A stretch of DNA of 64,000 bases from an uncultured Clostridia bacterium (GTDB lineage: Bacteria; Bacillota; Clostridia; TANB77; CAG-508). Both the position numbers and the translations under genes were made by a program. Position 1 is the first letter of the stretch. Every line of letters starts with the position of its first letter. The stretch is from contig CALYAA010000003.1 in the NCBI GenBank assembly GCA_944393385.1, positions 29,363 through 93,362 of the forward strand, given 5' to 3'. Below the pieces are notes generated by a model, which saw only the letters and a list, made by a program, of their open reading frames with translations, did no database searches and was not told where the DNA came from. Shown one piece after another: positions 47,403 to 48,837 of the stretch.

Positions 47403-47457
47403 ATTTTTTCCCTCTCTTTCGTTATATAGTCATATATATTTAATTATAACATATAAT

Positions 47458-47511
47458 AAAAAAAAAAAAAACATTTTATGATAAAAAATATCATAAAATG
47501 TCCTTTTTTTT
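47458..47511 (-). terminator. Strong hairpin terminator or attenuator between the pilin-like genes and the rest of the T4SS cluster
   Basis: The 13-bp stem is acattttatgata / tatcataaaatgt. On the minus strand it is followed by a T13 run. An extended -10 (TGTTATAAT, 47443-47451) lies just downstream. Confidence 0.65.
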
Positions 47512-47875
47512 ATGAGTTTGTCATAATACCAAGTAATAATTTAGCTATACTTGTTGCAGCAAATACAATTACAGTACCAATAATTAATGGTATAAATTGT
47601 TTTTGTACATCAGCTTTTTCATTTGCAGAACCAATTAACATTTTTAAACCTAAATATGCAATTAATATTACTGCTAATATTGCAGATATTACTTGTAATA
47701 GTCCTAAAACTCTACCAGCAATTTGTTGCATTCCTGTTGCATCTATATTACTATCATCTGGTGTTATTCCAGTAATAACATCAACAGCAGATGCTGCAAA
47801 TACTAAATTAGTTGCAGTAAATACCATTACTAAAGCCATCATAACAATTGCAAATATTTTTAAAGATTTTTTCAT
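47510..47875 (-). CDS. VirB2/TrbC-like pilin candidate C (121 aa)
   Basis: The signal peptide is ...TNLVFA/AS. Two TM helices are separated by the short charged loop GSANEKADVQKQ. The SD is perfect (AAAGGAGGAG). Confidence 0.6.
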   Translation of the reverse strand: MKKSLKIFAIVMMALVMVFTATNLVFAASAVDVITGITPDDSNIDATGMQQIAGRVLGLLQVISAILAVILIAYLGLKMLIGSANEKADVQKQFIPLIIGTVIVFAATSIAKLLLGIMTNS

Positions 47876-47929
47876 AAAAACTCCTCCTTTTTATTTTTAA
47901 CTTATATATATAAATTTCATTAACAAATT

Positions 47930-48325
47930 TTATAAATTTTGGAATACATTTACTGCAATTTCCCAAATCGTAAATGCTCCAAATGATATTAGTATTCCTA
48001 TGACCCAAGGTACCATAGATTCTTTAATTTTTGCTTTATCTTCTATACTTTGCGTTACAAATTTAATTCCTAGTATTACTCCTGATATAATTGTAACTCC
48101 TATTGCTATAGACAATAATACTCCTGATATAAATCCTGATAACTCCTGCAAGTCTCCTTCATCTATTGTGTTTGTGTCTTCATCAGCTGCATTTAAAAAA
48201 TCTTCACCCTTAGACAATACATCATCTAAAGTACTTGCTGCATTTACTTTTGAATATGTTGAAAAACTAAATACCAAAAATATAGTTATTATTATAAAAA
48301 TTATTTTTAATAATTGTTTTAACAT
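47930..48325 (-). CDS. VirB2/TrbC-like pilin candidate B (about 131 aa)
   Basis: The signal peptide is ...YSKVNA/AS. Two TM helices are separated by the loop QSIEDKAKIKES. ATG 48325 has the SD AGGGGTGA. Confidence 0.6.
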   Translation of the reverse strand: MLKQLLKIIFIIITIFLVFSFSTYSKVNAASTLDDVLSKGEDFLNAADEDTNTIDEGDLQELSGFISGVLLSIAIGVTIISGVILGIKFVTQSIEDKAKIKESMVPWVIGILISFGAFTIWEIAVNVFQNL

Positions 48326-48341
48326 ATTTCTCACCCCTTTG

Positions 48342-48767
48342 TTATTCTACAACTGATAATATTAATTTTGCAATTGTAGAAACACCTATAATCATTATTG
48401 CCCCAAAAAGTATACCTACAGCTTTTCCTTTACCCTGTGCTTTCTCATCAGCAGATCCTAAAATACTATTAAAACCAATCATTGCTATTGAAATTACTAT
48501 TGCAATTCCACCTACAACTTGTAACGCTCCAAATATTTTAGATATCATTGCATTTGCTCTTGAGTTATTTGTAATTGTTGGTTTATAACTTCCAGTATTA
48601 ATTTCTCCAGAATTTCCAGCCCCTCCTCCTTCAGGTCCAGCCATCGCCTCAGCAATTTTAATACTGTTTATATTAATATTTTCTGCTGCATTTACTTGAT
48701 TAGGAATGCATGTTAGAGTTATAAGTAATAGAGCAACTAAAATAATATTAACTAAATATCTTTTCAT
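48342..48767 (-). CDS. VirB2/TrbC-like pilin candidate A (141 aa)
   Basis: The signal peptide is ...PNQVNA/AE. Two TM helices are separated by the loop GSADEKAQGKGK, which is similar to candidate C. ATG 48767 has the SD AGGAGGGG. Confidence 0.6.
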   Translation of the reverse strand: MKRYLVNIILVALLLITLTCIPNQVNAAENININSIKIAEAMAGPEGGGAGNSGEINTGSYKPTITNNSRANAMISKIFGALQVVGGIAIVISIAMIGFNSILGSADEKAQGKGKAVGILFGAIMIIGVSTIAKLILSVVE

Positions 48768-48808
48768 ATAACCCCTCCTAACCCTAAATATCACAACTTA
48801 TCAATTTA

Positions 48809-48837
48809 ATTATAAGATATTTTTTTTTCAATTGCAA
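48809..48837 (-). promoter_or_regulatory. Sigma-A-like promoter of the T4SS cluster (TTGCAA-N17-TATAAT)
   Basis: The minus strand reads TTGCAAttgaaaaaaaaatatctTATAAT with exactly 17 nt spacing. It lies about 40 nt upstream of ATG 48767. Confidence 0.5.

Follow-up and report, generated by a model that had tools for sequence, protein, structure and literature searches.

Does a monoderm gut bacterium carry true pilins belonging to a type IV secretion system (T4SS), and what would they do there? The question is raised by three small tandem genes, here called pilA, pilB and pilC, on a 64,000-nucleotide stretch of contig CALYAA010000003.1 (assembly GCA_944393385.1, positions 29,363 to 93,362), hereafter the window, from an uncultured Clostridia bacterium of the lineage TANB77/CAG-508. 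In the textbook view, which held until 2023-2025, the T4SSs of monoderm bacteria do without a VirB2 pilin (PMC4027160, PMC9905601, PMC12857230). We find by sequence comparison that pilA, pilB and pilC are anciently diverged paralogues within the VirB2/TrbC pilin family, and we consider it probable that they are the pilins of a chromosomal, vertically inherited T4SS of low-GC, small-genome gut Clostridia.

Three paralogous pilins of the VirB2/TrbC family

The three open reading frames (ORFs) lie close together on the minus strand between positions 47443 and 48837 (Table 1), and all are preceded by a Shine-Dalgarno sequence (GGAGGGG ahead of the pilA ATG). A sequence-only reading of the window had described them as tandem genes for proteins with a signal peptide and two hydrophobic helices, and every checkable detail of that description is correct: the motifs QVNA/AE, KVNA/AS and LVFA/AS are all found in the translations, as are the Lys/Glu loops GSADEKAQGKGK, QSIEDKAKIKES and GSANEKADVQKQ that join the two helices. 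Each N-terminus has a basic start followed by a hydrophobic stretch that closes in V-x-A, and hydropathy places two further hydrophobic helices at the C-terminal end of each protein. Signal peptides and topology were called from hydropathy, a crude rule-based check and AlphaFold2 helices; by the rule-based check, a signal-peptide-like N-terminus is present in 92% of 252 pilin family members. AlphaFold2 models mature pilC as two antiparallel helices, residues 19-54 and 57-93 (36-37 residues), with a two-residue turn between them (pLDDT, the model's confidence score, 78). Hydropathy, the family alignment and AlphaFold2 agree on a plan of leader, two hydrophobic helices and short charged loop, in which cleavage of the leader is predicted. 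Pairwise identity among the three proteins is 22-27%, and they diverge most, in both length and sequence, in the stretch that runs from the presumed cleavage site to the first helix, in keeping with the claim that these are paralogues with differing mature N-terminal segments.

The assignment to VirB2/TrbC also stands. In searches with the Pfam models, pilC scores 35.2 bits against PF04956 TrbC/VirB2 (gathering threshold 27.9) and 31.2 bits against PF18895 T4SS_pilin (gathering threshold 26.6); pilA and pilB stay below threshold and are tied to pilC by jackhmmer, which recovers the other two pilins and all orthologues when seeded with any one of them (E = 1e-23 to 1e-44). From the pilins, jackhmmer reaches all the small genes that occupy this position in related loci and almost nothing else in approximately 1.7 Mb of related DNA. 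A profile hidden Markov model (HMM) of the clade's pilins matches pilA at E = 6e-30 and pilB at E = 1e-38. When 40 representatives of the family were picked at <45% mutual identity, PF18895 matched 29 and PF04956 matched 26 of them (E < 1e-3), and a profile search of a large protein database with these 40 returned mostly the same close cluster. Orthologues of pilC are publicly annotated as 'TrbC/VirB2 family protein [Clostridia bacterium]' and 'type IV secretory pathway VirB2 component (pilin)'. A match to a non-pilin family such as holins or bacteriocin immunity proteins would have spoken against the assignment, and no holin, immunity or phage family in Pfam, NCBIfam or PHROG matched the pilins significantly.

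To compare the locus across species, a one-genome-per-species collection was searched with the C-terminal VirB4 protein (VirB4-C). This yielded 450 stretches with a relative, of which the best 80 share 76-94% identity and all come from metagenome-assembled genomes of uncultured gut Clostridia (human, rabbit, chicken, ruminant). The number of pilin genes per array ranges from one to six; 55 loci have three and 16 have four. The pilC type, which closes the array, forms a clean orthologous group (97% positional best hits); position 2 reaches 68%, and position 1 is heterogeneous. All genes of the locus have a ratio of non-synonymous to synonymous substitution rates (dN/dS) below 1, with values of 0.05-0.09 for VirB4-C (strong purifying selection), and non-synonymous change in the pilins and the VirB6-like proteins proceeds at 3-6 times the VirB4-C rate. 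Some orthologous pilins carry up to approximately 270 extra residues in the mature N-terminus. Pilin genes of 240-386 aa, with a large segment before the two-helix module, occur in some arrays (related loci L005:8993-9943, L013:6797-7885 and L067:438-1598), which suggests that the long pilins may display a domain on the filament surface.

Predicted transcription signals around the array

The sequence-only reading had further proposed that the array is a separate, promoter-proximal unit, and comparison of the related loci supports this. A pilin unit with its own predicted promoter (P1) and terminator, followed by a machinery unit with a promoter of its own (P2), is well supported by the conservation of all three elements. 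Both hexamers of P1 are kept in seven related loci although the flanking sequence diverges. The 13-bp-stem hairpin followed by T13 was found directly 3' of the pilC stop codon, as claimed, with stem arms at 47501-47489 and 47483-47471 and the T-run at 47470-47458. Its folding energy is -27.6 kcal/mol, compared to -8.6 +/- 2.4 in shuffled sequences (z = -7.8; none of 200 shuffles as stable), and a generic terminator scan overlooked it solely on account of its requirement for three or more G-C pairs. Among 76 non-redundant loci, 84% have a hairpin and T-run after the last pilin gene, compared to 3% of shuffled spacers, a terminator being counted when the hairpin ends no more than 3 nt from the T-run. 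The position of the terminator is conserved while the stem sequences differ from subclade to subclade, and this turnover argues for selection on the structure itself. The extended -10 that had been noted ahead of the VirB3-like gene is near-universal: TGnTATAAT lies 28-60 nt 5' of the PrgI-like start codon in 75 of the 76 loci, compared to 7% of shuffles, and it is invariant among close relatives.

In four pairwise comparisons, the synonymous substitution rate (dS) of pilC was the lowest of all genes in the locus (0.42-0.64, compared to 0.63-1.4). It is possible that this reflects codon bias from high expression.

Table 1. Features of the pilin and T4SS locus and the unlinked coupling-protein gene, in window coordinates (TM, transmembrane; T4CP, type IV coupling protein)
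Feature	Coordinates	Strand	Description
Promoter P1 (pilin unit)	48809..48837	-	Predicted by consensus scan: TTGCAA, 17-nt spacer, TATAAT; A-rich tract upstream
pilA	48342..48767	-	VirB2-family pilin paralogue, 141 aa from ATG; longest variable mature N-terminus
pilB	47930..48325	-	VirB2-family pilin paralogue, 131 aa
pilC	47510..47875	-	VirB2/TrbC pilin, 121 aa; best-conserved, canonical, last gene of the array
Intrinsic terminator (predicted)	47458..47501	-	13-bp stem, 5-nt loop, T13; A-tract upstream
Promoter P2 (machinery genes)	47443..47451	-	Predicted extended -10 TGTTATAAT; 40 nt upstream of the PrgI-like ATG
PrgI/VirB3-like membrane protein	47043..47402	-	119 aa; weak PF12666 PrgI match, E = 0.009
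VirB4 N-terminal (TrsD-like)	45845..47077	-	410 aa, one TM helix; matches N-terminal part of NCBIfam VirB4_plasma
VirB4 ATPase, C-terminal part	43915..45897	-	660 aa; NCBIfam CD1110-family VirB4 model 210 bits; Pfam P-loop_TraG, DUF87, AAA_10
Three extended VirB6-like membrane proteins	34784..43848	-	943/1005/1036 aa; PF18895 matches; weak pLS20_p028 and MMCAP2_0566 matches; multi-TM profile
Distal T4SS genes	27668..34787	-	Bitopic 330/395/422 aa, C39-like 859 aa, two-TM 184 aa, NlpC/P60-like 140 aa
VirD4-type coupling protein (T4CP)	2543..4630	-	695 aa; PF02534 297 bits; unlinked, 40 kb from the T4SS locus

Secretion machinery and a proposed scheme for pilus assembly

The pilins are encoded together with VirB3-, VirB4- and VirB6-type components of a T4SS, and this synteny is retained in 80 species. 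On plasmids of Bacillus and Clostridium, the genes syntenic with the PrgI-like gene are annotated 'PrgI family mobile element protein', and orthologues of the VirB4 N-terminal protein carry the TraC-like domain PF26593. VirB4 is split into two overlapping genes (43915-47077). A frameshifted pseudogene was considered and rejected as an explanation for the split, which is conserved: the second gene always lies in the +1 frame with its own Shine-Dalgarno sequence (overlap of 17-140 nt in approximately 80 loci), and the identical split is found on Clostridium, Bacillus and Thermoanaerobacterium plasmids.

The VirB6-like proteins, each of approximately 1,000 aa, have a signal peptide and several TM helices, and in each of them a VirB2-like two-helix module is present in full (clade pilin HMM domain E = 2e-11, 1e-8 and 6e-14). 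This fits an earlier report that VirB2 and the N-terminus of VirB6 are homologous (PMC9905601). The triplication of the VirB6-like gene is limited to a subclade, with one such protein in most related species, and is not tracked by pilin copy number. A pairing of one pilin with each VirB6-like platform was rejected on the same ground: most loci have three or four pilins but one large protein with a pilin module.

Among the distal genes, whose roles are inferred from the features in Table 1, the bitopic proteins of 330, 395 and 422 aa are candidate VirB8-like components. A large protein that is secreted and has a C39-like peptidase domain at its C-terminus (31198-33777, minus strand; related loci L087:13503-15551 and L088:11612-13657) is kept on chromosome and plasmids, with a C39 family peptidase at the matching position in the plasmid relatives; it could be a cell-wall hydrolase (VirB1 analogue) or a pilin-processing enzyme. 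The window proteins that were scanned against Pfam and NCBIfam include no homologue of VirB5, VirB7, VirB9 or VirB10. Across the clade, the T4CP is 80-100% conserved and always lies between murC/dnaJ-like genes and sbcDC. It has an acidic C-terminal tail, and two small conserved ORFs (93 and 179 aa) that carry no functional annotation precede it in a conserved context (2543-5484, minus strand).

We infer the working of the locus, from signal-peptide cleavage and expression ratio to polymerisation and biological role, and propose the following scheme. P1, which is near-consensus and has an A-rich tract upstream, would drive a short tricistronic mRNA ending at the strong intrinsic terminator. 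The machinery genes, encoding the PrgI/VirB3-like protein, the split VirB4, the VirB6-like proteins, the hydrolases and the VirB8-like candidates, would be expressed from P2 and by read-through of the terminator, and the output of structural subunit would be uncoupled from that of the machine. Prepilins would be exported through the Sec pathway, cleaved after the A-x-A motif and stored as two-helix membrane proteins. VirB4 would then extract them for polymerisation on the VirB6-like platform into a pilus, or a conduit through the cell wall, with a lumen lined by the Lys/Glu loop and the variable mature N-terminus facing outside. Within such a polymer, pilC may be the conserved core subunit and the upstream copies faster-evolving accessory or alternative subunits.

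A possible, though unlikely, alternative is that the pilins are membrane or stalk parts of the T4SS channel with no extended extracellular pilus, the array supplying an abundant channel subunit. Gram-negative T4SSs require VirB2 with or without elaborated pili (PMC12857230), a conjugative pilus has never been visualised on any Gram-positive cell (bioRxiv 10.64898/2025.12.18.695078), and here the VirB6-like proteins likewise incorporate the pilin module. However, a separate transcription unit of predicted high output fits a polymer subunit better than a stoichiometric part, and the same holds for the fast evolution of the mature N-terminus and for its size variation among orthologues. We prefer the polymerising pilin of the scheme above.

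Chromosomal setting and relation to known systems

Upstream of the array lie two tRNA-Ser genes, the only Rfam matches around the locus, and then parB, parA, rsmG, mnmG, mnmE, jag, yidC, rnpA, dnaA and dnaN. The array is approximately 11 kb from dnaA (59802-61169), and sporulation genes are also present in the window. Between the tRNA-Ser genes and the pilin promoter there is a very AT-rich tract of approximately 860 nt (48838-49700) with no ORF of 60 aa or more; it holds a 56-aa hydrophobic ORF (49316-49486, minus strand). In some relatives, parB and the pilins are separated by an insertion of approximately 8 kb of membrane-enzyme genes.

At least 80 species of uncultured gut Clostridia share this layout, and the gene order of pilins, PrgI, split VirB4 and large proteins is constant throughout the related loci, with parB within 10 kb in 36 of the 80. 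Genomes of the lineage are approximately 1.5-1.7 Mb and low in GC. A pilC homologue is also found in Clostridium sp. CAG:269, and CAG-269 belongs to TANB77/CAG-508 in the GTDB (PMC13508870). The same gene order in 80 species, the position beside parAB and oriC, and the conserved context of the T4CP argue for vertical inheritance, and by these comparisons the T4SS looks like a chromosomal system rather than a mobile element.

Few of the near relatives of VirB4 carry names, and those that do are Bacillota (Heliorestis, Peptostreptococcaceae and Clostridium plasmids). The nearest annotated relatives (30-42% identity) are encoded on plasmids of Clostridium botulinum, C. beijerinckii, C. perfringens, Bacillus thuringiensis and Thermoanaerobacterium, where a small 'hypothetical protein' is followed by PrgI, a VirB4 N-terminal protein of approximately 300 aa, a DUF87 ATPase, a large membrane protein and a hydrolase. 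The clade pilin HMM matches the small protein of the C. botulinum plasmid at E = 1.7e-8 and a Bt407 protein at 5e-5. These plasmid genes were recovered solely through VirB4 synteny and the clade HMM; tblastn searches of the PLSDB plasmids with pilC or a consensus-like family member gave no match. By sequence, the locus belongs to a Firmicute T4SS lineage in which plasmids carry one pilin gene and the present clade an amplified array.

These plasmid relatives, which match the gene order and have one pilin-like gene, bring up a further alternative, namely that an integrative and conjugative element (ICE), or an old, decaying one, has this locus as its mating-pair-formation module, with pilins that serve conjugative self-transfer. 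The VirD4-type T4CP in the window and the two tRNA-Ser genes that adjoin the locus would also suit such an element. Against it, no integrase or relaxase Pfam domain was found among the scanned ORFs of the window and no att repeat or tRNA-Ser-derived direct repeat in its 64 kb, the place on the parAB/oriC side is kept across dozens of species, the T4CP lies far from the locus in its own conserved context, and VirB4-C is under strong purifying selection. We regard an ICE as improbable. Since no relaxase or integrase is nearby and the T4CP is unlinked, the most likely role of this T4SS is contact or exchange with other cells, in which it would resemble that of Patescibacteria, and self-transfer of a mobile element is a less likely one. 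That the three genes encode unrelated small membrane proteins (holins, bacteriocin immunity proteins or leader-bearing peptides) that stand beside a T4SS by chance is highly improbable: two-helix membrane proteins are easily over-interpreted and the fold searches made here were non-specific, but the gathering-threshold matches to two Pfam pilin families, the matches of 26 and 29 of the 40 representatives, the unity of the family in jackhmmer, the lack of any significant holin, immunity or PHROG match and the strict synteny with VirB3 and VirB4 in 80 species in effect rule this candidate out.

Several points weigh against our interpretation of a pilus-forming, non-mobile T4SS. The best sub-threshold scores of two of the three pilins are 19.4 bits (pilA, PF18895) and 17.6 bits (pilB, PF04956). 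Foldseek searches of the PDB with AlphaFold2 models of full-length and mature pilC gave nothing significant (no E-value <1), the returns being generic helical hairpins such as ATP synthase c subunits, designed bundles and Esx proteins, as is expected because the fold is a helical hairpin. The family profile spans the full length of the R388 pilin TrwL (8s6h), but with E = 0.41; other PDB sequence matches of the profile are weak or spurious, and the pilC sequence alone has no match in the PDB. Promoter strength and terminator efficiency are predictions, and the pilus itself is a predicted structure, none ever having been seen on these uncultured bacteria. Finally, the absence of a relaxase applies to the 64-kb window only, and the presence of a T4CP leaves DNA transfer possible.

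The T4SS pilins of Patescibacteria are the closest analogue of those described here. The sequence-only reading had stated that pilins are not a recognised part of the best-studied Gram-positive T4SSs, which reflects the former textbook view, and is now challenged both by the VirB2-like arrays in the chromosomal T4SS of Patescibacteria (Wang et al. 2023; Quinonero-Coronel et al. 2025, PMC12102498) and by the finding that conjugation of pCF10 requires PrgF, which is VirB2-like (ter Beek et al., bioRxiv 10.64898/2025.12.18.695078). A December 2025 review named Patescibacteria as the single exception to pilin-less monoderm T4SSs (PMC12857230). Their system includes a TrsD-VirB4 pair, PrgI and VirB6, lies near dnaA, has its T4CP encoded at a distance and lacks a relaxase (PMC12102498). 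The two systems share tandem, divergent VirB2 genes (2-11 at approximately 25% identity there, 1-6 at 22-27% here) that match the same Pfam models, PF04956 and PF18895, and stand beside PrgI/VirB3, TrsD-like, VirB4 and VirB6 genes. They also share proximity to dnaA/oriC, a T4CP far from virB4, the lack of a relaxase nearby (here, in the window), small genomes and uncultured hosts. In contrast with Patescibacteria, the host here is a member of Bacillota/Clostridia with sporulation genes, and its lineage has genomes of 1.5-1.7 Mb compared to <1 Mb.

PrgF has been modelled as a pilus on the VirB6-like PrgH, and VirB2-like candidates were reported on approximately 95% of 174 representative Gram-positive plasmids (bioRxiv 10.64898/2025.12.18.695078). 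Like PrgF, the pilins described here are small proteins of a monoderm T4SS, with two TM helices, a short charged loop and a VirB6-like gene nearby; they fall within the 50-150 aa, two-helix, virB6-adjacent class defined for PrgF-type proteins, and one gene of this kind lies upstream of PrgI in their closest plasmid relatives (C. botulinum, C. beijerinckii, Bt407). Unlike PrgF, the pilins here carry a predicted Sec-type signal peptide ahead of a long, variable mature N-terminus, can be recognised as TrbC/VirB2 by sequence, and occur as at least three paralogues on a chromosome with no relaxase nearby. With TrbC of RP4, VirB2 of the Ti plasmid and TrwL of R388 they share HMM-level homology, the leader, two hydrophobic helices and basic/acidic loop, and the association with VirB3, VirB4 and VirB6; they differ in their monoderm host and in the lack of VirB5, VirB7, VirB9 and VirB10 noted above.

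Multiple VirB2 paralogues had been likened to those of Anaplasmataceae, and the parallel holds insofar as Anaplasma, Ehrlichia and the Bartonella Trw system have several tandem, divergent virB2 copies beside one T4SS, but Patescibacteria are nearer. The former are diderm intracellular pathogens with effector-translocating or adhesion systems, in which the virB2 paralogues are thought to serve antigenic or host-range variation, whereas here the gene at position 3 is stably orthologous across species and purifying selection acts on all copies. A conserved 'pilin' cluster has been described from TANB77, the order to which CAG-269 belongs (Kim et al. 2024, PMC11680825), and is likewise a lineage-wide conserved pilus locus. 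It was considered as a description of the present locus and rejected, as it is a Tad pilus cluster with unrelated machinery (TadZ/CpaE, CpaF, TadB/C and type IV-filament pilins). A literature search on TANB77 together with 'type IV secretion' returned nothing relevant.

The identity of the pilins is already known from database annotation, and pilins of monoderm T4SSs have recently been published. It is this particular case that appears undescribed: a sequence-recognisable, signal-peptide-bearing VirB2 array in an oriC-proximal, apparently domesticated T4SS of widespread gut Clostridia, with a conserved promoter-terminator-promoter layout around it. For Patescibacteria, it is an open question whether VirB2 came with the monoderm machinery or was co-opted from diderm systems (PMC12102498), and a Firmicute T4SS whose pilins are recognisable by plain homology bears on that origin. 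We think it distinctly doubtful, but worth stating, that the TANB77/CAG-508-like lineage depends on other cells through this multi-pilin T4SS and that its Firmicute T4SS lineage was the source of the patescibacterial system, pilins included. On such a reading, a core-genome T4SS pilus would attach to neighbours and exchange material, as is thought for Patescibacteria, and the set that would have been passed on, a VirB2-family pilin with PrgI, TrsD-like/VirB4 and a VirB6 with embedded pilin module, is also the one found on Clostridium and Bacillus plasmids.

The order of promoter, pilin array, terminator and second promoter would be a design for setting the ratio of subunit to machine. The locus looks fixed and strongly conserved in the chromosome of a widespread, uncultured, small-genome gut lineage. 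Relatives within TANB77 have been linked to immunotherapy response, and a filament on the cell surface, or a conduit for secretion, could influence how this lineage deals with other microbes or with the host.

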